DNA of 37,180 bases from an uncultured virus (IMG/VR IMGVR_UViG_3300000205_000001). Its lineage: Duplodnaviria > Heunggongvirae > Uroviricota > Caudoviricetes. The notes beneath the pieces are model-generated. The model saw nothing but the letters and a program-made list of their open reading frames with translations, was not told where the DNA came from and did not search any database. The stretch is taken from positions 62,001-99,180 of IMG/VR virus record IMGVR_UViG_3300000205_000001; one strand, given 5' to 3'. The position numbers and the translations under genes are program-made. Positions within the stretch are counted from its first letter, which is position 1. Each line of letters begins with the position of its first letter. This document shows positions 3 through 35,600 of this stretch, in pieces.

Positions 3-3000
3 ATGCCAAGCTTCGTGAAGACCGAGAAAGACGAAGAGCTGTGGAACAAAGCGAAGGAAATCGTCCAGAAGGAATACAACAAGTCGGAGTCTGACGGAGA
101 CGATTACTGGCGGCTGGTGACAGGCATTTACAAGCGAATGGTCGGCGGTCATGCGGAAAAGTCGATTTACAGCCTGTCAGAGCTGACCCTGTTGAATGGG
201 TACAGCCTTCAAAAGAGCAAAAATAAGTCGTCCGATACCCCCGAGGGGGTACATAAAGACCTGCCTCCGGGTGGTGTGTGGCGCACCATTCGGGGGCATC
301 ACGTGTATATCGTGAACGGAAAGATCGTGGCGGGTTCCGTTCCGCACGTATGGAAAACCGGGCAGTATGTCGCCATGGACAAGGAAACCATGGCGAAGCA
401 CCAGGCAAAGCTGGACGAGAAGGCGGAAAAGGAAACGGCGAAAGCCAAGACCACCAAGAAAACCGCCAAAAAGGCTTCCGAAGAGCCGAAGGAAGAGCCA
501 AAGAAGACCACGAAGCGGCAACCGATGGCGAAGCTGGGCGGTGCTGGGCGTGTGCTGGCAAGTGAGCGAATCGCTCAACTGAAAGAAGCCGCCAAGAAGC
601 ACAAAAACGGCCATGTGGTGGAGAACTGGACAGACAAGCAATGGAGCGACTTCTTCTATGAGCACCGGAAAGCTCCCGTCACCAGCCTTCGCAAGTTTCT
701 TAGTGAGCAGGGAGAATCCAAAAAAGGAGCGGGGAAAGATGCTGAGAAAGCTTCTACGAAAGCTGGTACGAATCGCAAGTCAGCAGGGAAGCCATCCGCG
801 AAATCGAGCGGAGCGAAGAGCGGAAGCAAGAAGGCTTCGGAAGCAAAGACAACAACCACGAAAAACACGAAGAAGCCAAAGTCCGCCACCGGGAACGCCA
901 AGGAACAAATGGCGAAAAACCGGAAGGACATTGACGCTATCGTGAATAGCTCCAACAACCACAAGGCAAATAAGAAGGCGCGGGAGACCACGAAGGAGGA
1001 CATTGAATCCTTCGGGAGTAATCCCAAGGTGAAACAGGGCAAGGGTGCAACCAAGGCAGACTTGGACGCTATGCTTGCGTCAAATCCTCCGAAGAAGAAA
1101 GCAAAGGAGACCACAAGAGCAGACTTGGACGCTATGCTTGGGGAAATGCCGAAGAAAGCCGCTGAACCGAAGACCACCAAGACCGCCAAGAAAGCGAAGG
1201 CGGAAGTCAAAGACATCCGTACCGAAGCCCAAAAGAACCGCGAACTGGCGTATGACGTGGGCGACAAGATTGGCGGCGCACGGAAGGACACCTACCAGCG
1301 CAACTTCTACCTGAATCCAACCCCGCAAGCGCTTCAGGAGTTGGAGCAATGGGCACCGGAGCTGGCACAGGTGGCTTGCCGGAAGGAGAACATTCTGAAA
1401 AAGGTGGACTTCGAAGCGGAGTACAAGCGCGGCACAGATGTGAATGTGGCGTTCCTGAAGCAACTCATCTACGACCGTATCTCGCCGAGACCTTCCGAAG
1501 ACACGCCGGAAGCCCGCATGAAGTACCTGTCCGGCATCCGGGAGCTTCACCGGGTGCTGACACCCATCAAGACGTGGGACGACATGCAGAAGGCAATTCG
1601 TGACCTGTCCGACCTTGCCCGAGCAGGTGCCGGGTTGGCGGAAGCAAAACACCGACTGGCGAACGCCGGACAATACTTCTACCTGAACACGGAATACTAT
1701 CAGGAGAAAGTTCGGAAGGGCGAAGAGGCGAAAGCCAAGCTGGACTTCGAAGCGCTGGGCGACAAGCTGAACAACTTCTTCACCGATTACAAAGCCCGCG
1801 AACGGACGTACAAAACCCTGCTGAGTAAGAAGCTGTCGTGGGACAAGTACTTCAACCCGAACGCTTCCGCTGAACCGGAGAAGCGGAAGGTGGAGCGAGG
1901 GGCACAGAAGAAGCGCTGGGAGCGTCGAGCTGTGGACGAGCATCAGCGCACAGGCGGGCGTGAGACCCCTGTGAAGAAGCCGGAAGACATGGTGAAAGTC
2001 TTCGGCATGAGGGGCGTGGAGTTCGGGCACTGGGTGGACGATGCCGCCGGGCTGTACCACCTGAAGCGCTCCGCTGAGGCTTTCCACGACCTTGCCGACA
2101 TCTTGGGCATGGACGACAAGGATGTGTCCCTGAATGGACGGCTGGCGATTGCTTTTGGCGCACGGGGCAAAGGACGGGCGCTGGCGCATTATGAGCCTGG
2201 CCGCAAGGTTATCAACATGACCAAATACGGCGGCGCGGGTTCGCTGGCGCATGAATGGGGGCATGCGCTGGACAACATCCTCTACCAATACTCCCACGGT
2301 GGCAAAGGCTCCATCTCCATGGCTTCCGAAGGAGACATGGGCGACCATGACCAGAAGCTGAAAGAGCTGTACAACAACCTGATGGAAGCCATTATGAAGC
2401 CCGCTCCGGGCGACAAGGGCGGCACGAAGAAAATCAAGCTGGATTCGTCCAAAAAGCTCTACACCACCTACTACCCGGAAATGCGCCGGGACGTAGAAAG
2501 CGGCATGTCGCCGCAGGACGTGTACACCAAGTGGGCGGGGAAAATCAACAACGACATCGACCGCCAAATTCGGGCGGTGAAGAACAACCCGTTTCGCACC
2601 CCGGCAGACATCGAGAAGCGGGTGAAGGCGTTGGAGCGTCAGCGTACCCGGGAGATGAACGACTTGGCGGGGCGTATCGCCCAAGAGTTTCGCTACAAGA
2701 TGGGCGGGCACAAGACCGGGGAGCACTTCCAAGCGGAAATCGAAGTGCCGACCGGGCACTCCGAATACTACACCCGGATGCAAGAGCTGGACGGAAACGG
2801 CAAGAGCTACTACGCCCAGCCTGATGAGATGTTTGCCCGTGTGTTTGAATCCTACATTGAGGACAAGCTCAACGCCGCCAAGCGCAAGAACAACTACTTG
2901 GTGTGGGACACCAAAACCACCCGTGGTTCGGACGCGCCATTCCCGGTGGACAAAGAGCGCAAGCACATGCACAGCGCCATGGAAGCTCTTCTGAAGTATG

Positions 3001-3779
3001 TCGTCAAAGGCGGGGCGTTGAAGAAAGCGCTGGAGATGGAGCTTCGGAAGGGATATCTCACCTTCAACCATCCGGCGCTGAGTGGGGAAACCAAGCGCTA
3101 CGCTTACCCGGTGGACTGGACACGCGGCACCTACACGGTGGAAGACGTGTTCTATATCCCGGTCAACCGTCTGAACATGGTCTATCAAACCGAAGCCGCC
3201 ACGGACTGGGACAAGGTGAAGGAGAACATGGACAGGATGAGAGCCGGGGAAGCGCTGGAGCCTGTGGTGATTGGCTATGACTACGACATCCATGACGGAC
3301 ACCACCGCTGGTTGGCGGCAAAGGCGCTTGACCACACCCATGTGCCTTGTGTGGTAGGCGGCACGAACGAGCTGGACGTACAGCGGGCGAAAGAGAAGTA
3401 CGCCGAGCTGTGGAAATCCATTATCCCTGACCCAACCGGAACCAGTCCCTTCCCGGAAGACGGCACCATCATGTTCCGGGGCATCGGTCAGCGGGAGCTG
3501 GACTTCATTCGGAAGCACGGCTACATCCAATCGAAGGGCAAAGGCAATGACGACGACAAGGAAGACCGGGAGACGTGCTTTAGCACCACCTTCCGGCAGG
3601 CGGAAGGGTACGCCCGAAGCAACTACGACCTGTACGGAGAGACTGCCGCTTACGTCATTGTCGTGCCAAGACCGCCTTGGGTAGAGGAAGACGAACACGG
3701 GGAGCTGATTGCCCGCCGACCTGTCCCGGTGCACAACGTCACCGCGCTGTTCCCGATTCCGAAGGATGAGCGGGTATGA
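3..3779 (+). CDS. Large polyvalent protein: Lys/Ala-rich N-terminal region, zincin metallopeptidase/LPD1-like domain, ParB/Srx-like domain, C-terminal ADP-ribosyltransferase-like domain
   Basis: 1258 aa ORF. Motifs: DVGDKIGGARKD; RGVEFGHW...LAIAFGARG.G.ALAHYEP...INMTK..GAGSLAHEWGHALD (HExxH at ~2250); YYAQPDEMFARVFESY; ParB-like EPVVI...DGHHRWLAAK...VPCVV (~3150-3360); ART-like FRG...CFST...EHGE (~3465-3776). The start is at the window edge, so an upstream extension is possible. Confidence 0.8.
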   Translation: MPSFVKTEKDEELWNKAKEIVQKEYNKSESDGDDYWRLVTGIYKRMVGGHAEKSIYSLSELTLLNGYSLQKSKNKSSDTPEGVHKDLPPGGVWRTIRGHHVYIVNGKIVAGSVPHVWKTGQYVAMDKETMAKHQAKLDEKAEKETAKAKTTKKTAKKASEEPKEEPKKTTKRQPMAKLGGAGRVLASERIAQLKEAAKKHKNGHVVENWTDKQWSDFFYEHRKAPVTSLRKFLSEQGESKKGAGKDAEKASTKAGTNRKSAGKPSAKSSGAKSGSKKASEAKTTTTKNTKKPKSATGNAKEQMAKNRKDIDAIVNSSNNHKANKKARETTKEDIESFGSNPKVKQGKGATKADLDAMLASNPPKKKAKETTRADLDAMLGEMPKKAAEPKTTKTAKKAKAEVKDIRTEAQKNRELAYDVGDKIGGARKDTYQRNFYLNPTPQALQELEQWAPELAQVACRKENILKKVDFEAEYKRGTDVNVAFLKQLIYDRISPRPSEDTPEARMKYLSGIRELHRVLTPIKTWDDMQKAIRDLSDLARAGAGLAEAKHRLANAGQYFYLNTEYYQEKVRKGEEAKAKLDFEALGDKLNNFFTDYKARERTYKTLLSKKLSWDKYFNPNASAEPEKRKVERGAQKKRWERRAVDEHQRTGGRETPVKKPEDMVKVFGMRGVEFGHWVDDAAGLYHLKRSAEAFHDLADILGMDDKDVSLNGRLAIAFGARGKGRALAHYEPGRKVINMTKYGGAGSLAHEWGHALDNILYQYSHGGKGSISMASEGDMGDHDQKLKELYNNLMEAIMKPAPGDKGGTKKIKLDSSKKLYTTYYPEMRRDVESGMSPQDVYTKWAGKINNDIDRQIRAVKNNPFRTPADIEKRVKALERQRTREMNDLAGRIAQEFRYKMGGHKTGEHFQAEIEVPTGHSEYYTRMQELDGNGKSYYAQPDEMFARVFESYIEDKLNAAKRKNNYLVWDTKTTRGSDAPFPVDKERKHMHSAMEALLKYVVKGGALKKALEMELRKGYLTFNHPALSGETKRYAYPVDWTRGTYTVEDVFYIPVNRLNMVYQTEAATDWDKVKENMDRMRAGEALEPVVIGYDYDIHDGHHRWLAAKALDHTHVPCVVGGTNELDVQRAKEKYAELWKSIIPDPTGTSPFPEDGTIMFRGIGQRELDFIRKHGYIQSKGKGNDDDKEDRETCFSTTFRQAEGYARSNYDLYGETAAYVIVVPRPPWVEEDEHGELIARRPVPVHNVTALFPIPKDERV
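1056..1140 (+). repeat. 22-bp direct repeat inside ORF1 (peptide ADLDAML)
   Basis: gcagacttggacgctatgcttg at 1056-1077 and 1119-1140; a more degenerate KKARETTKEDI unit lies just upstream. Confidence 0.85.
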
Positions 3780-3805: not shown

Positions 3806-3863
3806 TGCTAAAATGAAGGCGACTTAGGCAACGGGTGGACTTCCGAAGTCACCCGTTTGTCTA
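3806..3863 (+). promoter_or_regulatory. Extended -10-like element followed by a leader hairpin capped by CTTCCGAAG
   Basis: TGcTAAAAT at 3806-3814 with no clear -35; hairpin taggca-acgggt-g-gacttc(c)gaagtc-acccgt-t-tgtcta at 3825-3863; RBS AAAGGGGGA before ATG 3887. Confidence 0.45.
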
Positions 3864-3886
3864 TATTGCCGAAAGGGGGAAACCGC

Positions 3887-6800
3887 ATGGAGACAACGAA
3901 GCCGTTCCTGTACATCGACTTATCCAAGGCGTGGCGGGAAGAGTTGCACCCACGGGATAAGTACGGCAGGTTTACCACCGTCAAAGGCGGAAGCCGTGTC
4001 GTGACGAAGACAGGGAAAACAGGGGTAGTCGAAGAAGTTACGGACACCCACTACCACGTCCGCTACGACGATGGGAGAAAAGGCAAGGTAGCGAAGGACA
4101 ACGCTATCCATGTCAATGACCACAAGAAAGTCATGGACGCCCAAAAAGCCGAGAAAGCCAAAGCGAAGAAGCGCAAAGCGGCGGCAGAGAAGGCGAAGAA
4201 GACCAAGGAGCATAACAAGACCAACGCAACCGGGAAGACGGGAGCCGCCAAGCCGCTGAAAGACCCGACCGCGACCGCTCCGAAGAAGGCGGCGAAGAAA
4301 GCTTCCGAGGCGAAAAAAGCTACGGCAAAGGCGGCAAAGCCGAAGAAGCAAAGCCGGGCGAAAGAAGCGCTGAACGCGCCTGTGCTGAAGCGTAACGTGC
4401 GTCATGACACCGAAGACATCCGGGAAATTAAGCAGACCATTCCGCAGAAGAAGGCTTCGGAAGTTCCGAAGAGTGAGCAGAACGAAGCCATCAGGGAATA
4501 CAAGGAAATGGAGACCAAGGGCACTGGCTCCATGAGCAAGCTGGACATGGATTGGAACAGCCACCCGGACGTAAAGCGCATCCTCTCGCAACCTGTCGCA
4601 AAGCGCAACGCAGAGGAAATCCGCCGTGTCGCCGGGGAGATTGCCAACGCCAATGACAAGCTGGCGCGTTCCGTGGTGCTGAAGATGGGCAACGCCCGTG
4701 GTTTGCACTTGGCAAGCCAAGTGAACCGCATCGGCAACAAGGCAACCAATCCGAAGAACGTCATTGTGCAGGAGACCAATTACTACGGGGACATGCTCCA
4801 GTCCGCACGGGCAACCATGTACGAGACGCTTCACAACGTCTTGGCGGGAAGCCAAAATCCGGGCAAGGACACGTCCATTGGCAAGCATGTGGTTCGCCGC
4901 ATGAAGGACAAGCTTCATCGGGACATGTACGCGCTTCTGAACGATATTCCCGCGCCGCATGAAATCCGCGCCGCCATTGGCGACATGCGGAAAGCGGAAA
5001 TGCACCTGACGCAGAAGCTTGGGCGCATCCCGACCAACGAAGAGCTGGGCGCGTACCTGCAAGAGAACTCCAAAGCCTTCCGGGAAGCTCCCATCGTCAA
5101 ACCTCCGAAGTGGGATGAGGCGAAGAACGACTGGGTGGCGACCAAAGAGCGCTACGAAGACCCGGCGGAGCGGCTTCAAGCTCTTCGGAACTATGCAAGC
5201 CAGCAAAAAGCTACGTCTCTTGACCAAAACATTGGTTCCGAAGGAGAGCGGGAAGTCTCCTTGAAGGACAGCATGGCAGACGACTCTCGTAGCCCGGAAG
5301 AGCACGTTCTGAAAAAAGAGCGTCAGTCGGCACTGGAAGACGCAGTTCCGAAGGCGTTCAGCGAATTGGGGCTGACGGACGACGAAATCAAAGTCTTGCT
5401 GACCAAGCATAGCGCACCTTCCACGGCGTCCCCGAGCAAAGCCAGCCTGACGGACGAAGAGACGGCGGAGCAGTTGAACGCCCAGCACGGCATGAAGGTG
5501 GACGGCAAGTGGGTAGCCAACCGCCGCGCTTCCGCCATGAAGAAGCTTCAGCGGGCGCTGGAAGAGAAGCACCCGGCGCTGATGCAACTGCACAGCATGA
5601 TGAAGTCCTTTGCGCTGGCAATGATTTTCAAGGCGCTCTACGAATACGACTTGGTGAAGTCCCTGCATGCGTGGGGCGTAGACCACACGCTTTTGCAACA
5701 GCGCTTTGTTCGGAAGGCAACGGCGCAAGACCGCATCGAGCTGTACAAGTCCTTGGCTCCGCATGAGTACGTAGGTTCCTACGTTACCACCGACGAGGGG
5801 CACATTATCGCCAATGTGGTGGAGTTTGTCCTGCCGGAGACCAACGCCCTGTACAAGTCCTTCAATGCGTTCATGAGCGGGATTCAGAAGTCCATGTTTG
5901 CTCACAAAGGCAAAAACCACGAAGTCAACAAAAAGGCTTCGGAGTACGTGAAGGCGAATTCGGGAAAGTACCAAGCCCTAGCCAACAGCCAGCAGGAGCG
6001 CGTGAAGCAGAAAAAGAGTAGTGGCAAAGCGCTCACATGGTCTGAAGAACTCCTGCTGAAAAATCCCGGTACGTGTTGGATTACATGGGGCGGAAAGAAA
6101 ATTCTGATTCACGGAAGTACCGGGGAAATCAAGTACGACTCCGCGAACGAAGCACACCGCGAAGAGCACAACCAAGGCGCACAGGAAGAGAAAATCGACT
6201 TCCACCATGAACGGGAAGCCTTGGAAGAGCACGAAAGCGAAGCGGAGAAACGTGCCTTGGAAGCGTGGGAAAAGGAAGGGAAGAACCTGAAAGGGAACTT
6301 CCGAACCAAGTTCCTCCGTGACCACCGCCTGACGGAAAACGAAGACGGCACGGTAACCTTCAACCGCCATCAGGATGTTTCGGAAGACAACCGCCACCTG
6401 ATTGACCATGGCATCCGGGCGTTCCATGAGGAAATGTCCAAGATGAAAAGCGACTGGGACAAACTCCACGCCGCCATGAAGGAAGAGAACAAGCACAAGG
6501 TAACGAACCACTACGCCGACATGAGCGAAGAGGAACGCGCCGAGTACGACAAGCTCTCCAGAGAGGAACAGGCGATTGCGACCGGAAACCACCTGCTGGA
6601 TAAGGAAGGCGTACTTGACCGCCTGAAGCGGTTCCATGACGAAGCCCAAGGGAAGTCCAAGGAAGAGCAAGCCCAGCTTGCAGAAGAACTTCTGAATGAC
6701 CTGAAGGGTATGGAGCACGGCTCCATGGCGTTGGTCAACAAGAAAATCATGCTGGGCGGCGGTGCGAACTTGGCGGGTATCGCTGGGGCGCTTCTGGAGT

Positions 6801-8586
6801 ACGACCCGACTTCCGAAGAGGGAAGGAAGGAAATCGCCAAGCGGATTGGCACTTCCGAGCTTGCCCGCGCCAACGAAGAAGCTGGAAAAAACCTGATTGC
6901 AGAAGGCAAGTACCTCATCGGCAACCCGCTCACCGGAAAGACCATGGTGGTGCACGTAGGACACGCCTTCGAAGGCGGGCGCGGCGGACGTGGCGGCAAG
7001 CTGGCTCCAGTCATTAAGGAGGCGTTCGACCCGGAAGGCGGACAGCACGAAGACCTGCAAAGCTGGGGCGGTCTCGCCCGGGCGCTGGGCTTCAAAAACG
7101 AGAAGGGCAACACGGCTGACCTGAAAAAGCTCATCATCGACAGCGCCAACAAGGACGCCAACAGCCCGATGGTCAAACCGCTTTCCGAAGACGAATACCT
7201 GAAGCACCGCGCCAACACGAAGCTGGGGCTTCAGGAGACCATGCTCCACAAGGAGTTTAAGCTGGTCAATCAGTCCCGCGACGACAAAGGCAATATCACC
7301 AGCCAAACCTTCGCACAGAAGATGCCGGATGGAACCGTCAACCACATCACGGTGGACGGAGAGGGCTACATTCAAGACCCGCTGATGAGACGCCTTTTGA
7401 ACCAACGGAAGCCCGTGACCAATGAGAAAGAGCTGAACGAACTGCTGAAAAACGCTGTCGGCAACCGCCGATGGGTAACGGCTCACTTCGGAAGCGACAT
7501 TCACATTGGTGACGCGCTGGGGCACCACATCCTGCTGGAGTATGACGGCAAAGGCGCTCCCCGGGTAGTCGGCGGGAAGTACGATGGGTACCGCTACATC
7601 GACGCCGCAGACGTTCCGAAGGGTGCCATCGACCCGGCGACCGGGGAACCTGTGAAGGCGCTGTTCAAAAACGGCAAGCTGGTAGACCGCCGCTTCACCA
7701 CCATGAACGAAGTGCCGATGGAAGTGGGCAATGCGGTCTTGTACCCAACAGGAAACGGCACCTTCCGAAAAGGACGCATCCATTCCGAAGTCGAAGGCGG
7801 CTTCAAGATTACGGACGGCAAAGGGCACGTCATTGGCGTGTTCAAGAAATCCGAACTGAAGCCTGCCAAACAGGAGGGGCGCATCCTCTCCGAGAGCGGT
7901 CAGGTTGTGGTGGACACGCACCAAGAGGGCGTCCACCGCATGAACGTGGATGAAGCGTTCAAGCCTGCCAGCGATAAGAAGCGGGACATTGCCCGGGCAG
8001 AGAAAGCCAAGGCGCTGTTCGCAGAAGCCCTTCGGAAGGCGAAGGTGAACAAAGCCTTTGACGAAGAGGGCAACCTGAGAAGCGACTTGGAGCTGTCTGA
8101 CCCGATGATGAGGCGGCTTCAGAAGGTACTGGGACGCTCCAAGGCGGGGCGCGAGATGCTTGCGAAGTTCAGCACGACCAAGCTCCCGGCAACGCTCAAA
8201 ATCCATGTGCCGGAAAGTCAGCGCTCCACAGTGGAGCAGTACGGCGTCACCGTCCGGGCAGACGGCACGGCGACCATCTCCCCGGCGAAGTTTGAAGAGC
8301 TTCGGGAAGCACTGGGCGGGTTGTCGCTGACACACCGGGCGCAGGAGATGCTTCAGGAGCACTTCCAGCGCAAAGACCGCACCCCGAAGACGGTGGAAGA
8401 GCTGAAGCAACGCTACCAGCCTTCCCAAGTGCCCAACAAGGGAGAGGGAAGCTTCGGGTACCACTATCAGCAACAGTTCAAGCCGAACAGCTTCCTGATG
8501 GACGCCAACAAGGGCTTGTACGGAACCCAGTTGGAAGGCGTGGCGCACATGATTGAGCGCGGAAGAGTGGTTGTTGGACACGGGAT
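3887..8586 (+). CDS. Exon 1 of a giant polyvalent protein (HPRxxxGRF motif, KOW/SH3-like, sigma-70-like r2-r4, second KOW-like, start of SNF2 helicase)
   Basis: ATG 3887 has a strong RBS (the track start at 3857 is less likely). Motifs: LHPRDKYGRF; sigma-like LTQKLGRIPTNEELG, TSLDQNIGSEGEREVSLKDSMADD, LTDDEIKVL...LTDEETAEQL...ASAMKKLQ. Ends LYGTQLEGV...VVVGHG-AT, the first half of helicase motif I. Confidence 0.8.
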
Positions 8587-9478
8587 TAACCTACACACTT
8601 GCCATGACCTTACCCGTCTGGTAGCATAGGGGTAAGGAGATGGTAGAAAATGGCGGCTTTTATGGAATGTAATGAAGAGGCATATTACTGGCTTGGGGTT
8701 CTGTTCGCAGACGGTGCCGGAAATTACCCGGATTACCGCCTATGCTTAAAATCCAAACATGCGAACTTTATTCAAGCGTTTGCAGACTACGTAAGTAAAC
8801 CCGTGAAAACGGGAATGGGAATGGGCGCAAGAAGTGTCGTGTATCGGGTAGACTTCTACAGCAAAGAGATTCGGCTACGTCTGATTGAATTAGGGTACAC
8901 CGTTTCTCGTAAAGCAGATAGGGCATTACCTGAAATTCCACCGAGTATGGTACGACACTTTCTACGCGGGTACTTTGACGGAGACGGTAGCATTCACAAA
9001 GACCGTCGGAAGCCGAATTGTTGGAGACTTGAATGGTGCGTACATAAGTCGGCTTCCGAAGCGATAAAACATCTTCTCGAAGTACACTGTCCGAGTGCGA
9101 ACGTACGGCTGTATGATAAAAAGTCAGTGGATTGCCTTATGATCTACAATTCCGAAGGGGTGCAGGAAGTTCTTCGTTTCTTATACGAAAATGCTTCCGT
9201 GTGTCCACACCCCAAGGTAAAAGCGCCAGGTGTGCAGTCCCTTGTAGAAGGAATTCTACAAGCAAAGCGGGTGAATTCGGTGAACGCCTAAGTCCGAGAG
9301 GATATGGCAACACCGAGCCAAGCCGAAGGGCACCTTCGGAAGGTGTAACGACTACTGGAGGGGTTAGTCCCCTTAATAACCAGCAGGAGCGCCCGCCATC
9401 CAGAACGGATGATGATATAGTCTAGTCCGGCTGTTAGCTACCGACAGCACAAATATCCCGAAAGGGACGGTATAAACG
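8587..9478 (+). mobile_element. Group I self-splicing intron with homing endonuclease inserted in the P1 loop
   Basis: 5' exon ends in U (GGGAU, 8586) and pairs with internal guide GUCCC (9237-9241). P2 is cttgtagaa-ggaa-ttctacaag (9241-9262). Core elements: gcgggtgaattcggtgaa, aacaccgagccaagc, gtaacgact, gcgcccgcc, gatgatatagtct. Terminal G at 9478. Splicing restores in-frame GHG-M-GVGKT. Confidence 0.92.
8650..9291 (+). CDS. Intron-encoded LAGLIDADG homing endonuclease (two-motif)
   Basis: YWLGVLFADG and HFLRGYFDGDGSI motifs; RBS AAGGAG at 8634-8639; lower GC than flanking exons; 3' end runs into the intron core. Confidence 0.9.
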   Translation: MAAFMECNEEAYYWLGVLFADGAGNYPDYRLCLKSKHANFIQAFADYVSKPVKTGMGMGARSVVYRVDFYSKEIRLRLIELGYTVSRKADRALPEIPPSMVRHFLRGYFDGDGSIHKDRRKPNCWRLEWCVHKSASEAIKHLLEVHCPSANVRLYDKKSVDCLMIYNSEGVQEVLRFLYENASVCPHPKVKAPGVQSLVEGILQAKRVNSVNA

Positions 9479-11687
9479 GGGAGTAGGTAAAACCATCACA
9501 GGTGTCGTGGCAGGGCTTCACTACAAAGCGCAAAAGCTGGCGAACGGGGAGAAGCCGAAGAAAACGCTCATCGTGGCTCCGAAGGGCATCATGTCCGACT
9601 GGGGCAAGGAGATTGGCAACCACACCACCGCGAAGGCGCTCTACATCGGGAACGGCTTGACCAAGAAGGGCGTAGACGGCAAGGTAATGAAGCATGAGAA
9701 CGGGCGCAACCTGTGGGGACAGGACGGCACCGAGCAGGAAGCGGTCAGCGCGAAGTCCTTCCTGAAGAACTTGGAGAAACACGCTTCCGAAGACCACGAC
9801 TTCCACATCGTCAGCTACGACACCTTCATGCGAAACCGGGAGCACTTCGCCAACAGTGGCATGTACGACAACATCGTGATTGACGAAGTTCACGCCTTCA
9901 AGAATCAGAAGGGCAAGCGTGGTCAATCGCTGGCGGAGACCACGGACAAGTTCAAGAATGTGTGGGGCTTGTCGGGTACGCCGATGGAAAATGATGCACG
10001 GGAAGTCTGGAGCCTTGTGGACACTATCACAGGCGGCAAGCATGAGCTGGGGACGCTGAAAGAGTTCCAAGACAAGTTCATGAAGAAGGACAAAAACGGC
10101 AAGCTGGTAGGCGTGAAGCCGGAGATGGCGGAGAAGCTGGGCGACATTCTGGCGAACATCGTGCAGTTCCGAAGCGGGGCAGACGTGACCTACAACGATG
10201 GAAGCAAAATCGAGTTTCCGCACCTTGTGGGCGCTACGTCTCCTGACCAGCCGAACCCGAAAGTGGACTTCATCGGCAACATGGTTGACCGAAGCCGCGA
10301 CCACGCCACCACGGACTACTACGGCACGAAGCACAGCGTCACCGACTTCGAAGCGGGCACCAAGACGGTCACTTCAAAGAACGGCGAGACCTACGAAGTG
10401 CAGACCTTCACGCCGAAGAACCTTGACCCGGCTACCGAAGCCATGTACAACACCTACCGACAGCTTCAGGCGAAATACCTGCCGGAAAGCAAGCTGAACG
10501 AACTGGCAAGCGCCGCCGCTTCGGGCTTCGACCAAGCAGGCAACCGGAGCGACAAGTCCAACTACCTGACCGCCATGCAAAAGCTTCAGAAGTTCCTGAA
10601 CGCTCCCTTGGCGCACAAGATGTACGTGCCGGGCGGCAACGCCATTGAATCGGATGAGACGGATGCCCAATCCGAGACGCCGCAGAGCGACAAGGGCGGC
10701 GGGCTGAAGCCGTACGACCCGAAGACGGGCGAAGGGCACTACATCATCGACGAAAACGGGTTCAAGCGCTACTTCGAATCGGACGGGCAAGGCGGATTTA
10801 AGCGGAACCCGGATGGAAGCCCGAGACTCCTGCCGCCGCTCCACGAAGACAACCCGAAGGCGCAATACCTGAAAAAGCGCATCAATCAATACCTGTCTTC
10901 GCTTCAGAAGGAGAACCGGGAGCGTGTCGCCCGTGGCGAAAAGCCGCTGGTGCCGAAAGTCGTTGTGAAGTCCTCCTACACCACCTTCGGAACCGACATC
11001 GTGGATAACGTCCTGAAGGAGATTCGCAACACGCACCCCATCTTCCGTGACCTTGCCGAGCATGGGTACACCGACCTTGGACAGGGGCGTTTCACCGGGG
11101 ACGCTGACGACCGGGAGCAGACCAAAGTGGGCTTCCGTGGCAACAAGAAGGACTACCTGAACAACCAAGGCAACCTGTGGGCAACGACCGTTTCCCCGGC
11201 GGGTAAGGAAGGTGTAGACTTCGGAAACGCGCACATCATGTTCCACTACGACCAAGACTGGAACCCGCAGAAGATGGCGCAGTTTACCGCCCGGGTGCGC
11301 CGCTCCGACTCTGCCACCACCCACGTCCAAGCAGGGCGGGCAAACGCCGTGCGCGTGGAATCCCTGCACATGCCGGGAACCGTGGAAGACTTCATGTTCA
11401 ACGCCCAAGACAGTAAGATGGCAAGCATCAAGCAAGTCACCGACAACACCCGCATGGCAGAACGGAATCCAAAGCTGGGTGAGACGGAAAGCAGGCTGGG
11501 CTACGGACACCGTGGATTCACCAGCCGGAAGCATCCGGGAGCCAAACCGAAGGCTCCGACCACCGTTCAGAAGCCGACTCAACCTGTTCAGACCCCGGCT
11601 CCCGGACGGGCAGGCAACGATAGTGTCCTTCCGAAGAAGGCGGCGGCACAGGCTGACAAAGCTTTGAAACTGGTGATACTCTTGTAA
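9479..11687 (+). CDS. Exon 2 of the giant protein: SNF2/SWI2-family helicase
   Basis: GVGKT, TLIVAPKGIMSDW (Ia), IVIDEVH (II), LSGTPMEND (III), SPAGKEGVDF (V), DQDWNP..MAQFTARVRR (VI). Exons of 4700+2209 nt give 2302 aa plus stop. Confidence 0.9.
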
Positions 11688-12346: not shown

Positions 12347-12469
12347 AGTAAACAAGGACAGCCCAAGACGTTAAAACACGCCATGGCAAGGTTTCCTACC
12401 AGCTCTAACCTACCATGGGTGTATCGAGCGGCACAGCCGTTCGAGCGTCTTGCGCTGTCCTTGTTTGCT
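12347..12469 (+). ncRNA. Putative structured RNA (three-way junction) in the leader of the prohead protease gene
   Basis: 26-bp closing stem 12347-12372/12444-12469 (1 mismatch, 2 G-U pairs) enclosing hairpins 12376-12422 and 12425-12443. Confidence 0.55.
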
Positions 12470-12480
12470 ACAGAAGGGTG

Positions 12481-14127
12481 GTGAGTGAGTTGGAAAACAC
12501 GCCTACCGATGTGCTACAGGGCGACACCTACCACGTATGGGTTCCTATCGAAGACACCGACCTTCTGAAGTCCGTTCAAGTGGATGAAAACGGCGACTAC
12601 ATTGTTCAGGGTGTCATGACTTCGGACGAAGTGGACGAAGAGAATGACTCCATCGACCCGGAAGGAATGGACTGTTCGTACTTCCTGACCAAAGGCTGGA
12701 TTAAGTACGAGCACGGAAACAACCCGAACCAGTTCATCGGAGAGCCGCTGGAGGTAAAAGTAGGGCGCTTCGAGCACCCGACTCTCAAAAAAGCGGTGAA
12801 TGGCATCTTCGTCAAAGGACGGCTGTTCGCCAATCGGGAGCTTGCACGGCAGGCGGTACGCGCCATCCAAGACCTTCAGAAGTCCAACACCAAGCGAAGA
12901 ATGGGTTGGTCTATCGAAGGCAACGTCAGAGAGCGTTGCCGCCGAACTGGGAAGATTCTGAAGTCCGTTCTTCGGAACGTGGTCTTGACCATGAACCCTG
13001 TAAACACCATGACATGGGCGGAGCTGGCAAAGTCCTTTGCGAAGAACCATGAAGTGGAAGTCAACATGGAGCTGGACAAGTCCATGGACACCGGGGCGAT
13101 TGCGGAACTCATGCCACAATCCATTGAAGGCTACGACCCCGAAAAAGACCCACAGGAAAAGTGGATAAAGCTGTTTCGGAAGTTCGTGGCAGAAAACGGG
13201 CTGAAGAAGTCCCTGCGTGACAGGTTCGTAACCAGCACCAGCGGCGAAGCGGGCATCGGTGCCTACCAGTTCGCAAGACGCGAAGGGCTGGATTATGAAG
13301 GAGCGGTTGAATTCGCTTCTTATATTGCCGACAGGCATGAAATCCTAAAATCCCTTTTCGGGAAATTCGGGGGTGAAAACATGGAGAAGAACGCAAGCAC
13401 GTTGGCAAGTCTGTTAGACACGGACTTGGAAGAGTTGAAGAAGTCCTTGGAGTTGGACGAAGAGGACGACTTGGAGCTGGAGGAAGAGCTGAACAAGTCC
13501 ATGGACGGTGACCAAGATTCTGACGACTCCGAAGACGAGGACGATGCAGAAGATGAGGACACCGAAGAGGACGACTCCGACGAGGACGAGGACGAAGACG
13601 GCGACTCCGACGAGGACGAAGAGGTAGAGAAGTCTTACAAGACGGAACTCACCAAGTCCTTGGCAAAAGAGCATGGACAAGCCTTCGAAGTCTCCGACTT
13701 CCTCACCGCCCTGACCGATGAAATTGGCTTCGGTCTGGAAGGGCTTCAGAAATCCTTGGGGCATGTGACCAAACAGCAAAACGCCATTGTGAAGACGCTG
13801 GCTTCCATGGGTGAGCTGGTGAAGTCGCTTGCCGGAGAACTTCAGCAAGTCCGCGCTGAAAACGCCGAGCTTCGGAAGTCATTGGGTGACGTTCTGGAAC
13901 GTCCTGTCGGACGCAAGAGCGTTGTCAACCAACGCGAAGTCACCACGCTTACCAAATCCATGGGAGCTGGACAACCACTGACACGCGCTCAAGTTGAAGA
14001 CGTGTTGGTGAAGTCTTTTGAAGCTGGGGAGTTGAACGGTTCCGAAGTTATCCGCTGGAACGCTGGCGTACCGCTGGAACAGCTCAACCTTCCTGACAGC
14101 GTGAAATCCAAACTGGGCTTGCTGTAA
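12481..14127 (+). CDS. Prohead protease fused to scaffold protein
   Basis: VQGVMTSDEVDEENDSI, IKYEH, GWSIEG, VVLTMNPVN are phage prohead-protease-type motifs; acidic tract and coiled-coil C-terminus; directly upstream of the capsid gene. Start uncertain (GTG 12481 or TTG 12490). Confidence 0.85.
   Translation: MSELENTPTDVLQGDTYHVWVPIEDTDLLKSVQVDENGDYIVQGVMTSDEVDEENDSIDPEGMDCSYFLTKGWIKYEHGNNPNQFIGEPLEVKVGRFEHPTLKKAVNGIFVKGRLFANRELARQAVRAIQDLQKSNTKRRMGWSIEGNVRERCRRTGKILKSVLRNVVLTMNPVNTMTWAELAKSFAKNHEVEVNMELDKSMDTGAIAELMPQSIEGYDPEKDPQEKWIKLFRKFVAENGLKKSLRDRFVTSTSGEAGIGAYQFARREGLDYEGAVEFASYIADRHEILKSLFGKFGGENMEKNASTLASLLDTDLEELKKSLELDEEDDLELEEELNKSMDGDQDSDDSEDEDDAEDEDTEEDDSDEDEDEDGDSDEDEEVEKSYKTELTKSLAKEHGQAFEVSDFLTALTDEIGFGLEGLQKSLGHVTKQQNAIVKTLASMGELVKSLAGELQQVRAENAELRKSLGDVLERPVGRKSVVNQREVTTLTKSMGAGQPLTRAQVEDVLVKSFEAGELNGSEVIRWNAGVPLEQLNLPDSVKSKLGLL
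13381..14127 (+). CDS. Probable nested in-frame scaffold protein
   Basis: Internal RBS GGGGGTGA then AAAC-ATG at 13381, the same RBS style as other genes; D/E-rich and coiled-coil sequence with many LxKS motifs. Confidence 0.65.
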   Translation: MEKNASTLASLLDTDLEELKKSLELDEEDDLELEEELNKSMDGDQDSDDSEDEDDAEDEDTEEDDSDEDEDEDGDSDEDEEVEKSYKTELTKSLAKEHGQAFEVSDFLTALTDEIGFGLEGLQKSLGHVTKQQNAIVKTLASMGELVKSLAGELQQVRAENAELRKSLGDVLERPVGRKSVVNQREVTTLTKSMGAGQPLTRAQVEDVLVKSFEAGELNGSEVIRWNAGVPLEQLNLPDSVKSKLGLL

Positions 14128-14157: not shown

Positions 14158-15630
14158 ATGGAAAACCTGATTAACGGTTTCGGTCAGTCTTCCGTACAAG
14201 AGCTGGAAGAGTTGAATAAAGCCCTTGGTACTGGTACGGAAGGCGAAGCCTACGGTGGCGGGGCATTCGCTGATATGTCCGCGCTCCGTCCGCAATCTCT
14301 CGAACCTACCCTGAAGATTGTGACGGCACAAGAGCAACACATCAAATTCTGGAAGTCCATCGGCAAGAAGCAAGCGTTCAACACCGTTGAAGAATTCAAC
14401 GTGCTGGACAGCTACGGTGGAAACTCTTCGCCGTTCTTCGTTGAAGGCGGTCTGCCGAACGAAGAGGACAGCAACTACATCCGTCAATCCCAAATGGTGA
14501 AGTTCCTTGGTACGACCCGCGTGATTACGCACCCGGCTACCTTGGTTCGCAACACCGTTGGGGATATCGTCGCCCGCGAGACCATGAACGGTACGCTGTG
14601 GCTCCTGCAACAACTGGAGCGGGCGCTGTACTTTGCAGACGAATCGCTTGACCCGCTGGCGTTCAACGGCGTTATTGCCCAAGTGAAGAAATTCGTGCAG
14701 GGCAAGCCCTACGAATCCCAGCACATCATCGACATGCGCGGCGAACCGCTGGATGAGAACACGCTGGAAGACATTGCGACCATCATTGCTGACAACTACG
14801 GCTCTCCGAAGCTGGAACTGCACCTGACGAACCAAGTCCACAAGGACTTCTCCAAGCTGATTACGGGCAACGGCGGGCGTCAGCGCGTCATGATGAGCGG
14901 CAACCCGGGTGACATTCGCCTTGGTCAACCTGTGCGCGGGTACAGCGCAAACGTGGCGGACATCGACTTCGTGAACAACATCTTCCTGAAGCCCGACACC
15001 GCTCCGAAGGCTGTATCCCAAAAAGGCGCTCCGGCTGTTCCGACTCTGCCGGGCACGGGCGCACTGGTGGCTACGGACGACAGCACTTCGAAAATGGATG
15101 CTGGCACCTACCACTACTTCGTGAGCGCGAAGAACTCCAATGGCGAGTCTGCACCCGTTCACGTTGGTTCCGTGGCAGTAACCTCCGGTCAACGTGTGGA
15201 CATCACCATCAACAAAGTGGTAACCGACCCGGTAGCGAAGTCCTACCGCGTATACCGTGGTTACACTTCCAACGCTTCCGAAGCGCTGTTTGCGTTCGAA
15301 GTTCCGGCTGAATCCGGCTCCGGCACTCAAACCATTGCCGACCGCAACTTCGACATCCCGGGCACGGACACGGCGGTTCTCATCGACAACGACCCTGAAA
15401 ACGTGCTGTGCTTCAAGCAACTGGCACCGCTCATGAAGCTCCCGCTGGCACGTATCTCCGCTTCCGAGCGCTTCATGATTCTGCTGTACGGTATGGTTCA
15501 GGTATACAACCCGCGCCGTATCGTCGTCGTGAAGAACATCGGCAAGCTGGGCATCAACAGCAACCGTGAACTGTTCAACCCGTCCTACGGCGCTGACAGC
15601 TTCGGTACCATCAAACCTGTACAGGGCTAA
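14158..15630 (+). CDS. Major capsid protein (SPO1/Twort-like type)
   Basis: 490 aa; ALRPQSLEPTLK..T, FWKSIGKKQAFNTVEEF, LAPLMKLPLA; N-terminal LNKA candidate processing site; follows protease/scaffold. Confidence 0.9.
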   Translation: MENLINGFGQSSVQELEELNKALGTGTEGEAYGGGAFADMSALRPQSLEPTLKIVTAQEQHIKFWKSIGKKQAFNTVEEFNVLDSYGGNSSPFFVEGGLPNEEDSNYIRQSQMVKFLGTTRVITHPATLVRNTVGDIVARETMNGTLWLLQQLERALYFADESLDPLAFNGVIAQVKKFVQGKPYESQHIIDMRGEPLDENTLEDIATIIADNYGSPKLELHLTNQVHKDFSKLITGNGGRQRVMMSGNPGDIRLGQPVRGYSANVADIDFVNNIFLKPDTAPKAVSQKGAPAVPTLPGTGALVATDDSTSKMDAGTYHYFVSAKNSNGESAPVHVGSVAVTSGQRVDITINKVVTDPVAKSYRVYRGYTSNASEALFAFEVPAESGSGTQTIADRNFDIPGTDTAVLIDNDPENVLCFKQLAPLMKLPLARISASERFMILLYGMVQVYNPRRIVVVKNIGKLGINSNRELFNPSYGADSFGTIKPVQG

Positions 15631-32644: not shown

Positions 32645-35600
32645 ATGGCTGATTTTACCGTTCAGGATAAGTTTAACCCGGACAAATCCTTCACAGACGT
32701 GAAATTCGGTTCGGATTCCGTGCTTTTGGAAGTTGAACTGAACGAAATGCAAAAGATTCAAAACCATATGAGAGCGGAGATTCTCCGCAATATGGTGCAT
32801 AGCGGTTTTCTGAGCATGGGCAAAACTCTTGTAGGGTTGGACTTCTTGCGGACTAAGCGGGATGGTGCCGTGCTAGTACCAGCAACATACGCCCAATTCA
32901 ACTTCAAAAATATGATGCAAATTGACGCCATAAAAGCCGTTGTGAACGGGTTCATGTTGGACATCTCCAAGTTTGTAGACGCAACAGGCTACAGTGACGC
33001 CGATCTGACCACCGGAAACCTGATTCAGCTCCCCGACCCGCCTGCTACGGGAACCCGCGAAGACTTGGTATTCTTGGAAGTTTGGTTTGAGGAAATCGGG
33101 GATGGGGAGACCATAAACCGATACGGGGGAACCAAATCAGGTATCCTTACAAACGACTTGAAAGACAGCCGAATTGGTGAGGAAACGTCCCGCCGCAATC
33201 AGCTCAAATGGCGCATTCGAAGTGTTGCTGGTGTAAACTTCGGAAGCAAGCCTGAAGGGGTAGACGACGCTACAGTCGTAAAGGCATGGGGAGCAAACAC
33301 CGCCGACACAACGAGAGTGTTTACGAAGCATGCAACCGATAAGGGACTGTACGTAGCTGGCGACGGCTCTCAAGCGTCTAAGGATGAGCTACGAACTGTC
33401 GATGGGTATGTGTATGCCGTTCCGATGTTTCGCGTATCGCGCCGCAATTCTGGAAGCTTCAGCGTGAATAACCCAACTGGCGCTCGCAACGCTGTACGGC
33501 TAGTAACAACACAAGCGGTTAGCGCGTCCGAAGTTCCCGTCACCTTCGGAGTTACCAGCGTAGCAGGTATCCAAGTCGGTGATATGCTTATCTCCGATGA
33601 TGGGACTCTCTTCGGAAAAGTTACCGCGATTGATACGAACGCCAATACGCTTACAACCGCCCGCGCCGCTTTTGCGGTAGGCTTCGGTGGAGCGATCAAC
33701 TTGAAATCTGACCGTCCCGATGGTCTGTATGCTGACATCATCGACGAGCGCGATATCATCGACCTTCGCCATTACGCACCATTACAAAAACCGGACTACA
33801 AGGCACTCCTTGCTTCTGAGTTCCAAAAGTACATGCGCGGGGAACTGGCGAAAAGAGCTACACTGAAGACGTATCACGGCCTTCGGAAGACACCGACAGA
33901 TGCCAGCACTGTATTTTACACGTCTCTGGATGGTACGGCGACGGCGGAGATTGGCGGAGCACCTACCGTAACTGGCACCGTAGCGTTCGCACCGTCTGTC
34001 ACGGGTTCAGGCATGTACTTTGATGGTTCTACACACCTGTCCTACCCGCTGAACAACCTGTCCAGCGGCGTATCGGCAGTCACACTTGACTGCTTTGTAC
34101 GGGTGAAAGACTTTAGCAATACGCGGCATTTCTGGGGCTTGTACGACCCGTCCAGCCAGCTTTCGGTATCTTTCTACTACCTCCAAACTGGAAACTCCAT
34201 TCGCCTGTCAAAAAGGGGCGCGGTGCTCCTAGAGGCTCTGAAGGGAACCGCAGATAAAATTCTGAAAAACTTCACCCACCTGCGTGTCGTGCTGACCGAC
34301 GCGAAGGCACAGCTTTATGTGAATGGCGCACTGGTCGCAGAAACTTCGTCAGCACCCGGCGTTACGATGTCGTTTGCATCCATGACGGTGGGCTACATTA
34401 CGGGAACCAGCCCGTCCTTCAAGATGATCGGAACCATAGCCGACCTGGCCGTATCCAACATCGACCGAGGAACAACCTTCACCACGCTTCCGAAGGACTT
34501 CACTGATGGATACGCTGTTCTCGCGCCCGCCTTTACGGGGCAACGCAGACAGTATTCCGAGGCGCAAAATACACAAGTGCAGGTTGGCTTCGCAAAACTT
34601 GGCGGTACAGGAAGCTCCCGTGGGATTAAAGTGACGCTTCAACAGAACGCCAACCAATGGACGGCTGGTGACAAAATCTCCATCGAAGGTGTAGCCGGGG
34701 AGATTATCACGGGTGTCTATGACACCGATACCGCTCTTGCGAAGGTGACACAGGACTTCGCAAGCGGCGGAACCGTCGTTTACGTAGACGACGTTTCCAA
34801 GCTGGCTGTGAACGATACGGTTCGGTTCTACAATCGCATAAACAACACCGTGAGCGGCGAATACACCATTTCTGCCGTAGATACTACCGCGAAGACCATC
34901 ACACTGTCTTCGGTGGTCAACCAAGCGCTTACGAAGGAGCAAGACTTCGTGGTAGAGACCACCGCTTCGACTTCTGTACCAACCGTGAAGTTCAAAGACG
35001 GTTCCATCTACACCCAAGCAGGTACGTGGACAGGCCTTGGAACGAACAAAGCAGAATTCACGCTTGGTTCGTTGGCGGCACAGCTCAACGTAGAGGACTT
35101 GGAGATTACCTACAGCCTGACCACTCCGGCAGGGCAAGCGGGCTTCTCCGAAGTTCCAACGGCGGTGTATGGCGGGGAAGCAAATGGCGGTGCGCTAAAA
35201 ATCGGAACCGTTGCCGTGTCGGACGACTTCGCTGGAAAAGTGCAGGGAAGTGTCACAGCAAATCCTAACGTAATGAAAAATACCAGCTCCGCGAGCTTGG
35301 TTTCCCCCACAACCCTGAGTGAGGTTTCCACACAAGCTTACTATGACGCGATTACGGCGCTTGACGGAAATACGGCGAACACACAAACAACTGTGAACGG
35401 AGAAATCCCTCAACACATATTTGCCTTCGACCTCATCCGCATTGTGGAGGACAAGTTCGGGGAAATTCCGTCTCTGAACAAGGTGCAGTGGCTGAAGGAC
35501 AATCTAAAGGCCATCACATTCAAATGGTGGGGACACGGAAGTTCTGCGTCTGGTAACAAAGCGAACGTGCGGTGGTGGGATGGAAGCACAAGCGCATGGC

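Follow-up and report, generated by a model that had tools for sequence, protein, structure and literature searches.

Can a sigma factor enter a bacterium as part of the phage particle? This question is raised by a gene of an uncultured tailed phage, a myovirus, that lies in a stretch of 37,180 nucleotides (the window) corresponding to positions 62,001-99,180 of the virus record IMGVR_UViG_3300000205_000001. An earlier note on this DNA had described a sigma-70-like factor at 4600-5570, embedded in a 2300-residue head-module protein that is fused to a SNF2 helicase. The genome comprises 99,180 bp with direct terminal repeats and is rated complete. Throughout, coordinates without a prefix are window positions, G000 denotes the whole 99,180-bp genome of the phage, L-numbers are IMG/VR loci and P-numbers are database proteins. 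The sigma-like module lies in the open reading frame (ORF) 3857-8629 on the + strand. The giant head-module gene probably starts with the ATG at 3887, given that P0003, an identical database protein of 1580 amino acids (aa), begins with METTKPF. Residues of the giant protein are counted from this ATG, so that 4600-5570 corresponds to residues 238-562; a separate module numbering, used for D82, Q85, R88, H114 and the like, refers to a 368-aa segment (4547-5650). The seven sigma-like peptide strings quoted in the earlier note were all recovered in one + strand frame, colinear, at 4640-5551. The stretch from 4547 to 5566 encodes a genuine sigma-70-family module, diverged but complete from region 1.2 to region 4.2 and devoid of region 1.1, which occupies residues ~230-570 of a spliced protein of 2302 aa.

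Sequence profiles consistently returned sigma factors. Pfam Sigma70_r3 (cut-off 25.3 bits) matched the whole protein with an E-value of 1.3e-5 (25.6 bits) and the 368-aa segment with an E-value of 3.6e-7 (30.6 bits), the match spanning only profile positions 3-31 of 78. Of the NCBIfam models listed at E <= 10, 11 of 12 were sigma-70 models, colinear over region 3 and regions 3.2-4, the best with an E-value of 1.8e-5 and all far under their full-length cut-offs. Moreover, a family profile based on a 12-sequence alignment of the module (A2) was compared with the PDB sequences: all 15 matches at E <= 0.01 were SigA, the best being Bacillus subtilis SigA (3.8e-5), and in the alignment to the latter (SigA 191-263) the end of region 2.4 and regions 3.0-3.1 correspond position by position. 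Profiles were needed here, as a single-sequence phmmer search of the segment against the PDB returned only ribosomal protein L9 (E 0.39).

The fold leads to the same family. The AlphaFold model of the module, built on 28 sequences, has a mean pLDDT (predicted local distance difference test) of 82, and all 49 rows listed in a Foldseek search of this model against the PDB are sigma factors, with a best E-value of 6.1e-5 and alignments of 315-372 columns. When the domains were compared with VIA-align, the sigma2-like domain matched WhiG (7lq4_A, Z 8.7, root-mean-square deviation (rmsd) 3.1, 99 residues aligned), the N-terminal domain of SigE (8b3z_D, Z 8.3, rmsd 2.2, 78/78) and sigma70 (7n4e_F, Z 8.0, rmsd 3.0, 92 aligned), the sigma2- and sigma3-like domains together matched FliA (1rp3_G, Z 8.4, over model residues 19-229), and the sigma4-like domain matched sigma4 of sigmaS (6ido_A, Z 8.6, rmsd 3.5, 80/86); a Z of 8-9 is middling for helical proteins, and these rows support rather than prove the assignment. 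Among the viral structures of BFVD, the top matches of the module are stand-alone phage sigmas (best E 5.1e-5).

A profile search of 1.84 billion representative proteins yielded 46 matches at E <= 0.001. Thirteen of these belong to the family and measure 600-2314 aa; twelve have E <= 1e-10 and the remaining one 1.2e-10. In each of them the module lies 196-468 residues from the N-terminus. Of the 33 matches outside the family, 32 carry Pfam sigma domains. Two distant members pass Pfam cut-offs that this protein misses: P0033 scores 27.4 bits with r4, and P0036 scores 28.5 bits with r2. A borderline relative, P0041 (E 2e-5), matches r2 at 27.2 bits. Chance similarity was rejected as an explanation: whether sequence profiles, folds or the entire protein library were searched, these independent routes led to sigma factors and to nothing else.

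Family members, distant members and true sigmas, all taken from the same exhaustive search, were then aligned region by region. The module has kept the region 1.2-like helix, the N-x-x-L of region 2.1, the D and Q of region 2.2 (D82 and Q85 are invariant, as is the motif D..Q.AR), the P-x-H of region 3.0 (P137, H138), the L-G-R-x-P-T-x-x-E of region 3.1, and regions 4.1 and 4.2. In region 3.2, T-S-L-D, an acidic stretch and S-P-E-E align with S-L-D/E ... D ... P-E of SigA and other sigmas, and the sigma finger is disordered in the AlphaFold model (pLDDT < 50 at model residues 222-246). Across the 12 aligned members, the region 2.2 block is the most conserved (0.78), the 2.3-2.4 block reaches 0.75, and region 4.2 is the least conserved folded part (0.55).

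Besides the middling Z values, several observations weigh against reading the module as an ordinary sigma factor. Pfam Sigma70_r2 gave no match on the segment even at E <= 10, and Sigma70_r4 gave none on the segment or the whole protein. Thus, of the three Pfam profiles that had been proposed as a check, r3 alone came out above its cut-off, in keeping with the earlier description of region 2 as degenerate and of regions 3 and 4 as clearer in so far as r2 misses the module and r3 detects it. The phage also encodes a stand-alone sigma (396 aa, G000 34679-35869, L015 1396-2586) with an extra C-terminal HTH_23 domain; used as a positive control with the same Pfam library, it scores 45.7 bits for r2 and 57.3 bits for r4, so that the missing matches on the module are due to its divergence and not to the method. 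The hhalign comparison of the module with this stand-alone sigma is weak (E 0.0046, probability 7.5%). Apart from D and Q, the D-L-I-Q-E-G-N-type helix of region 2.2 is changed. In addition, 25-45 residues are inserted between regions 2.1 and 2.2, a beta insert of ~30 residues follows region 3.1, and the turn of the region 4.2 helix-turn-helix contains ~6 extra residues, which are absent from the distant members P0033-P0038. In region 2.3, true sigmas carry aromatic residues (F-S-T-Y-A-x-W-W) that capture the melted -10 strand; the family has I-G-A/K-H-V-I/V-S/R-R in their place, without any aromatic residue, and canonical strand separation by the module is therefore unlikely. This block carries invariant H114 and R118 in the family. 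The absent aromatics would also suit a sigma mimic, likewise raised in the earlier note.

The family comprises 27 homologs of 1254-2361 aa, which are 47-61% identical over the module. An alignment-based scan of IMG/VR revealed 14 related loci, and a single-sequence scan revealed 0. There was no match in a tblastn search of the segment against 50,697 GenBank phage records, and the family alignment found no relative, hence no prophage, in one genome per prokaryote species (185,579). Per these searches, the module family is confined to uncultured phages of ~100 kilobases (kb). The module is present in all relatives and the stand-alone sigma in this phage and two of the five relatives searched; within this group of phages, it is thus the embedded module that represents the conserved sigma-family element.

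Does the module contact RNA polymerase? A complex was modelled from module residues 1-135 (with the family alignment) and residues 1-450 of the B. subtilis beta' subunit, a stand-in that was chosen because the stand-alone sigma is closest to the sporulation factors SigE/SigK (NF006158, 190 bits, under the equivalog cut-off), a likeness that suggests a spore-forming Bacillota host. The complex scored 0.78 and the best control 0.47; the calibration mark for such scores is reached by 116 of 157 solved complexes and by 2 of 215 mismatched pairs. Three runs share at least 79% of their contacts, with a partner pLDDT of at least 82. The modelled interface joins beta' 263-305, the clamp-helix region, and beta' 123-132 with module residues 75-96. 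The latter make up the region 2.2 equivalent, and Q75, D82, Q85 and R88, all of them invariant, take part in the interface. In the model, the region 2.2 equivalent thus docks on the beta' clamp helices of the stand-in host. Of the structure prediction with core polymerase that had been proposed earlier, this model covers module residues 1-135 and a stand-in beta' 1-450. Several points count against the modelled contact: the control complex in which beta' was replaced still scored 0.47, the pass may reflect the memory of the model for solved sigma-beta' complexes and hence likeness only, and the B. subtilis subunit is a stand-in for that of the actual host.

With respect to the enzyme itself, homologs of beta and of beta' were each found in 0 of 5 complete genomes (this phage and four relatives), with positive controls in 14/14, a search that very diverged polymerases could escape; likewise, a PHROG scan of 66 ORFs contained no polymerase. 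The search for a T7-like polymerase (PF00940) gave nothing in 5/5 genomes, but its control was positive in no genome, and it is thus uninformative. The stand-alone sigma was not found in two of the four complete relatives. In G000, ten near-identical promoter-like elements of the form TTAGAA-N18-TATAGT lie on the + strand between 5.7 and 46.2 kb, an exact copy being TTAGAATTCTACAAGATGCCTGTGTATAGTGAAAATGAGGGAGC (G000 43670-43713). They precede replication, nucleotide-metabolism and small unknown genes, and none is located in the structural module; no site beyond the ten scores above 18 bits, the shuffle maximum being 9.9. In broad terms, the elements look like housekeeping-sigma promoters. They could be served by a host sigma or by the stand-alone sigma, which is a point against the module as the factor that reads them. 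The pattern TAGAA-N17-20-GTATAGT is found in 0 of five relatives, and an 11-mer count in three whole relatives revealed other repeated words instead.

The location of the gene bears on delivery. Its neighbourhood reads large terminase, portal (G000 58424-60187), MuF-like minor head protein (G000 60389-61735), a 1258-aa polyvalent protein, the giant gene, protease-scaffold, major head protein, sheath, tube, tape measure and baseplate, the two giant genes following the MuF-like gene. The scaffold half of the protease-scaffold protein contains 12 copies of K-S-[LFMI], mostly as L-x-K-S-[LFM]. Five K-S motifs lie within 100 residues directly behind sigma4 (K573, K591, K621, K657 and K668), every other virion protein contains 0-2 K-S-[LFMI] motifs, and there is no motif of this type upstream of the sigma module in the giant protein. 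None of 5000 residue shuffles reached the count of the scaffold, and none of 5000 that of the post-sigma cluster (at least 5 in 100 aa). A matrix derived from the 12 scaffold sites also picks LEELNK/ALGT at capsid residue 21 and portal residues 19 and 569, and gives 3 matches in 18,023 aa of non-structural ORFs. The post-sigma cluster (2-6 motifs) is kept in 14/14 related loci, and the motif-rich scaffold (5-15 motifs) in all 13 loci that reach that gene, L013 ending earlier. Moreover, the last residue of the borderline relative P0041 (507 aa) coincides with the K of the first site. The candidate cleavage cluster that had been noticed directly behind the module is thus borne out by the shuffles and the related loci.

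The K-S motifs are probably sites of the head protease, which would free a sigma-bearing piece of ~570 aa. Against this, the motif could recur for structural reasons, as part of scaffold-like helices, instead of marking a cut site, and most capsid genes of the relatives lack an exact K-S-[LFMI] motif. Either reading would place the segment inside the prohead. The predicted cuts would part the sigma piece from the SNF2 piece; the assistance by SNF2 as a fusion partner that the earlier note had envisaged is therefore doubtful, which likewise speaks against the proposal in its original form. Overall, what the note had observed is confirmed, and what it concluded is supported in part.

Our preferred reading, to which we give slightly less than an even chance, is that the module is a delivered, unconventional initiation factor that recruits the host core polymerase to the incoming genome. 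The giant protein would be made late and built into the prohead, as suggested by the gene position, the protein class and the basic linkers. The prohead protease would then cut at the L-x-K/S-[LFM] cluster behind sigma4, a motif common to scaffold, capsid and portal, giving a ~570-aa piece, comprising the N-terminal module, the K-rich linker, which is proposed to bind DNA, and the sigma module, and a ~1630-aa piece bearing SNF2. By analogy with T4 Alt, P1 DarB and the N4 virion RNA polymerase (vRNAP), both pieces would exit the particle with the DNA. According to the complex model, the sigma piece would dock on the host core via its region 2.2 equivalent on the beta' clamp helices, and the enzyme would be secured for the arriving phage DNA ahead of any phage protein synthesis. 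This last step is the weakest, since other residues stand in place of the canonical -10 melting ones. A bolder version, possible but in our opinion doubtful, would amount to a third route to start a phage infection, which uses neither host-sigma promoters nor an injected polymerase: a sigma released from the particle by the protease would make the host core phage-specific before phage expression, strand opening being achieved in a non-canonical manner via the invariant His and Arg.

This proposal has to be weighed above all against a delivered sigma mimic or decoy, which would occupy or titrate the sigma site of the host core without initiating, with the result that host transcription is shut off or the enzyme is handed to another phage factor. 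Such a decoy would fit the finding that the core-binding region 2.2 is the most conserved part while the -10 melting aromatics are lost, the variation of the region 4.2 recognition helix among relatives, the placement of region 2.2 on the clamp helices in the complex model and the presence of another, canonical sigma for the promoters of the phage. However, the region 2.3-2.4 equivalent is also highly conserved (0.75) and has its own invariant H and R, two of the four complete relatives have no other sigma, and the retention of the sigma3 helix-turn-helix, the P-x-H, the finger and the sigma4 fold exceeds the needs of a clamp-helix plug. We regard a decoy as unlikely.

Two further readings dispense with delivery or with polymerase. 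The module might stay behind, either as a late sigma derived from a polyprotein or as a tether of RNA polymerase or DNA to the assembling head that is subsequently degraded or left behind. Late expression with the head genes is expected from the gene position, and relatives without the stand-alone sigma would need some factor for their late genes; yet a late sigma inside its own late operon cannot start that operon, the protease-type motifs, which also occur in the scaffold, suggest that the protein resides in the prohead, and head-module polyvalent proteins are held to be injected in passages of PMC5512222. On balance, this reading appears quite improbable. Slightly less probable still is an exapted relic, a captured sigma gene that has become a DNA-binding or structural internal head protein without polymerase contact. 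It would account for the strong divergence, the inserts, the lost region 2.3 aromatics and the failure of Pfam r2 and r4, and also for the adjoining histone-like lysine-rich linker, but conservation peaks at the polymerase-binding helix, the predicted interface uses invariant residues, and the acidic finger, although disordered and without a function anywhere but in the polymerase cleft, has preserved the pattern S-L-D ... SPEE.

How does the module compare with known systems? With the bacterial sigma-70 groups 1-3 (SigA/RpoD, SigB, FliA/WhiG) it shares the order of regions and the three folds, but it is embedded 230 residues into a 2302-aa protein and shows only 11-22% identity to solved sigmas. 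SPO1 gp28/gp34 and T4 gp55 are stand-alone phage sigmas that use the host core polymerase. Stand-alone phage sigmas are likewise phage-encoded (the best BFVD matches are the Vibrio phage VAP7 and Kuja sigmas; others are the SigF/G-like sigmas of Bacillus phages). They are separate genes of ~170-690 aa expressed after infection, whereas here the sigma is a domain of a giant head-module protein. Ordinary usage of phage sigmas is the subject of the relevant passages of PMC12282133 and PMC7318152.

The giant protein itself resembles phage-type polyvalent proteins, which Iyer, Burroughs, Anand, de Souza and Aravind (2017, PMC5512222) predict, in the sections concerned, to be packaged in the capsid and injected. 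Members such as P1 DarB, as portrayed there, are alike in the giant multi-domain form, the C-terminal SWI2/SNF2 ATPase, the portal, MuF and protease neighbours and a nearby LPD1 protein; in contrast to the proteins treated in those sections, there is no methylase here, and ~1100 aa are without known domains. The word 'sigma' has 0 occurrences in the main text of that paper; its supplements, outside this count, might list a sigma domain. N4 vRNAP is described in parts of PMC4496689, PMC13434306 and PMC5512222 as a giant protein of the virion by which early transcription of the injected genome is initiated. N4 thus brings a complete single-subunit polymerase, whereas this phage would bring the specificity subunit only and borrow the host core. 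In T4, according to passages of PMC5512222, Alt and the internal proteins are packaged in the head, trimmed by a protease and injected with the DNA, and Alt retargets the host polymerase. Alt acts by ADP-ribosylation and not as a polymerase subunit. The closest case is Salmonella phage Arash, in which, as stated in a portion of PMC10585845, the stand-alone sigma Gp10 is found in the particle proteome by mass spectrometry, together with phage-encoded beta and beta'; the sigma described here differs in being embedded, with no polymerase genes found. Judging from that portion, a virion-borne sigma as such is not wholly without precedent. Full-text literature searches revealed no described sigma module inside a virion or polyvalent protein, and the earlier note, too, knew of no described example.

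In the giant protein, an N-terminal module, a linker rich in K and A, the sigma module, the motif cluster, ~900 residues and the SNF2 ATPase follow one another (the coordinates are collected in Table 1), so that several unrelated functional domains are combined: the sigma module, the SNF2 ATPase and ~1100 aa of other conserved domains. The N-terminal module is kept across the 27 homologs; its W-REE-HPRD-x-G-[RK]-F motif occurs once in G000, and the module has a weak match to Pfam DUF7141 (E 0.0015, under the cut-off). The 978 residues between sigma and SNF2 were modelled with a pLDDT of 80. A Foldseek search of this model against the PDB gave 0 matches at E <= 0.001, and Pfam assigned no family to it; the best Foldseek rows are tandem Tudor/Agenet and eS4-type small barrels, and the segment includes several small Tudor/SH3-like beta barrels.

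Table 1. Features of the giant head-module gene and its neighbours (window positions)
Feature	Position	Strand	Basis or remark
Exon 1, giant head-module gene	3887..8586	+	residues 1-1566 plus two bases of codon 1567; P0003 identical
N-terminal module, function unassigned	3887..4159	+	W-REE-HPRD-x-G-[RK]-F motif, then small beta-rich domain
Lys/Ala-rich low-complexity linker	4157..4546	+	residues 91-220; 31 K and 24 A of 130; K+R 37 vs D+E 16
Sigma2-like domain, regions 1.2-2.4 equivalent	4547..4939	+	fold match, alignments, complex model
Sigma3-like domain, region 3.0-3.1 equivalent	4958..5209	+	Pfam Sigma70_r3, PDB profile alignment to SigA, FliA fold match
Region 3.2 (sigma finger) equivalent	5210..5293	+	T-S-L-D, acidic poorly ordered linker, SPEE
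Sigma4-like helix-turn-helix, regions 4.1-4.2 equivalent	5294..5566	+	sigmaS sigma4 fold match
Five K-S-[LFM] motifs, candidate prohead-protease sites or scaffold-like segment	5603..5893	+	shuffles, 14 related loci
~900 aa of conserved domains, then SNF2 N-terminal lobe up to the P-loop	5894..8586	+	AlphaFold pLDDT 80
Group I intron in SNF2 P-loop codon (GHG/M/G-GKT)	8587..9478	+	Rfam RF00028, homolog-restored junction
LAGLIDADG homing endonuclease ORF inside the intron, 213 aa	8650..9291	+	Pfam LAGLIDADG_3 26.2 bits (cut-off 22.5); phrog_4645 E 2.5e-23
Exon 2, rest of SNF2 ATPase and C-terminus	9479..11687	+	Pfam SNF2-rel_dom E 6.4e-20; phrog_62 DNA helicase
Upstream 1258-aa polyvalent protein	3..3779	+	LPD1 E 1.7e-16; phrog_26754 ParB-like nuclease E 5e-36
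Prohead protease-scaffold fusion	12415..14127	+	phrog_1028 head maturation protease E 3.9e-41; phrog_15087 scaffold
Major head protein	14158..15630	+	phrog_752 E 8.9e-82; scaffold-like site LEELNK/ALGT at residue 21

As judged from the sequence, the SNF2 part of the gene is interrupted by a group I intron that carries a LAGLIDADG endonuclease. Past the G-H-G of the SNF2 Walker A loop, exon 1 loses its sense, and the intron core of Rfam RF00028 is found at 9209-9444 (67.8 bits, cut-off 50, full model 1-253). Removal of 8587-9478 restores GHGMGVGKT, which compares with GHGMGTGKT in four uninterrupted homologs, and the joined frame runs for 2302 aa to a single stop at its end. The exon closes with the T at 8586 and the intron with the G at 9478. 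Among sequencing runs, one DNA run with a 0.06 share of words was listed, and no RNA run. The earlier description of a 2300-aa protein fused to SNF2 is thus right only after removal of the intron, since at the DNA level the gene consists of two ORFs. P0020 and P0028 end in 'GHGIN...' as this protein does, which suggests an insertion at the same site, and most homologs are uninterrupted. The large terminase gene (G000 52908-55902; L018 14908-17902) is likewise split in two halves, between which are found a second complete group I intron core (60.7 bits, Rfam, L018 16437-16766) and an HNH endonuclease ORF (G000 53672-54229).

The 1258-aa protein encoded upstream contains a K-rich linker, a CLCA_X/zincin-like region (NCBIfam CLCA_X E 1.1e-35, under the cut-off), LPD1 and a ParB-like nuclease domain. 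Its N-terminal motif, G-G-x-W-R-T-I-R-G-x-x-V-Y-I-V, is also present at the N-termini of the distant sigma-module proteins P0032 and P0037 and, loosely, of P0036, P0039 and P0040, a recurrence that suggests an interchangeable N-terminal 'handle'.

Two repeated words stand out in the genome as a whole. The palindromic 9-mer CTTCSGAAG, by far the commonest 9-mer in G000, occurs 145 times in 99,180 bp, evenly spread at 12-17 copies per 10 kb, mostly within genes and without conserved flanks or stems; two words linked to it, CTTCAGAAG and CTTCTGAAG, have 8 copies each. It ranks first or second among the 9-mers in 12 of 14 related loci (L001-L014, GC content 0.44-0.58) and is absent from two. Its abundance suggests that a binding or modification site is under positive selection. 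The long Shine-Dalgarno-like word AAAGGAGCTGGTA has ~20 copies in this phage and 6-11 in the relatives G001, G003 and G004, and may represent extended pairing with the tail of the host 16S rRNA.

Sigma factors are usually seen as soluble cellular, phage-early or phage-middle products. To our knowledge, the takeover of transcription by virion-delivered components is known for enzymes, such as the N4 polymerase and T4 Alt, and not for a specificity subunit of the host core. The module described here is a variant that joins two known kinds, being a member of the sigma-70 family and at the same time putative cargo of a polyvalent head protein. If it is indeed delivered and active, it would add a new cargo class to the polyvalent proteins and provide a simple, testable model of an immediate-early takeover that does not depend on protein synthesis. 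Moreover, it would represent a natural sigma that binds core without the canonical melting residues, and hence a probe of the minimal needs of promoter opening. If it is a decoy, it would be a new kind of host shut-off protein. A specificity subunit carried as virion cargo would, if true, constitute a new takeover strategy.

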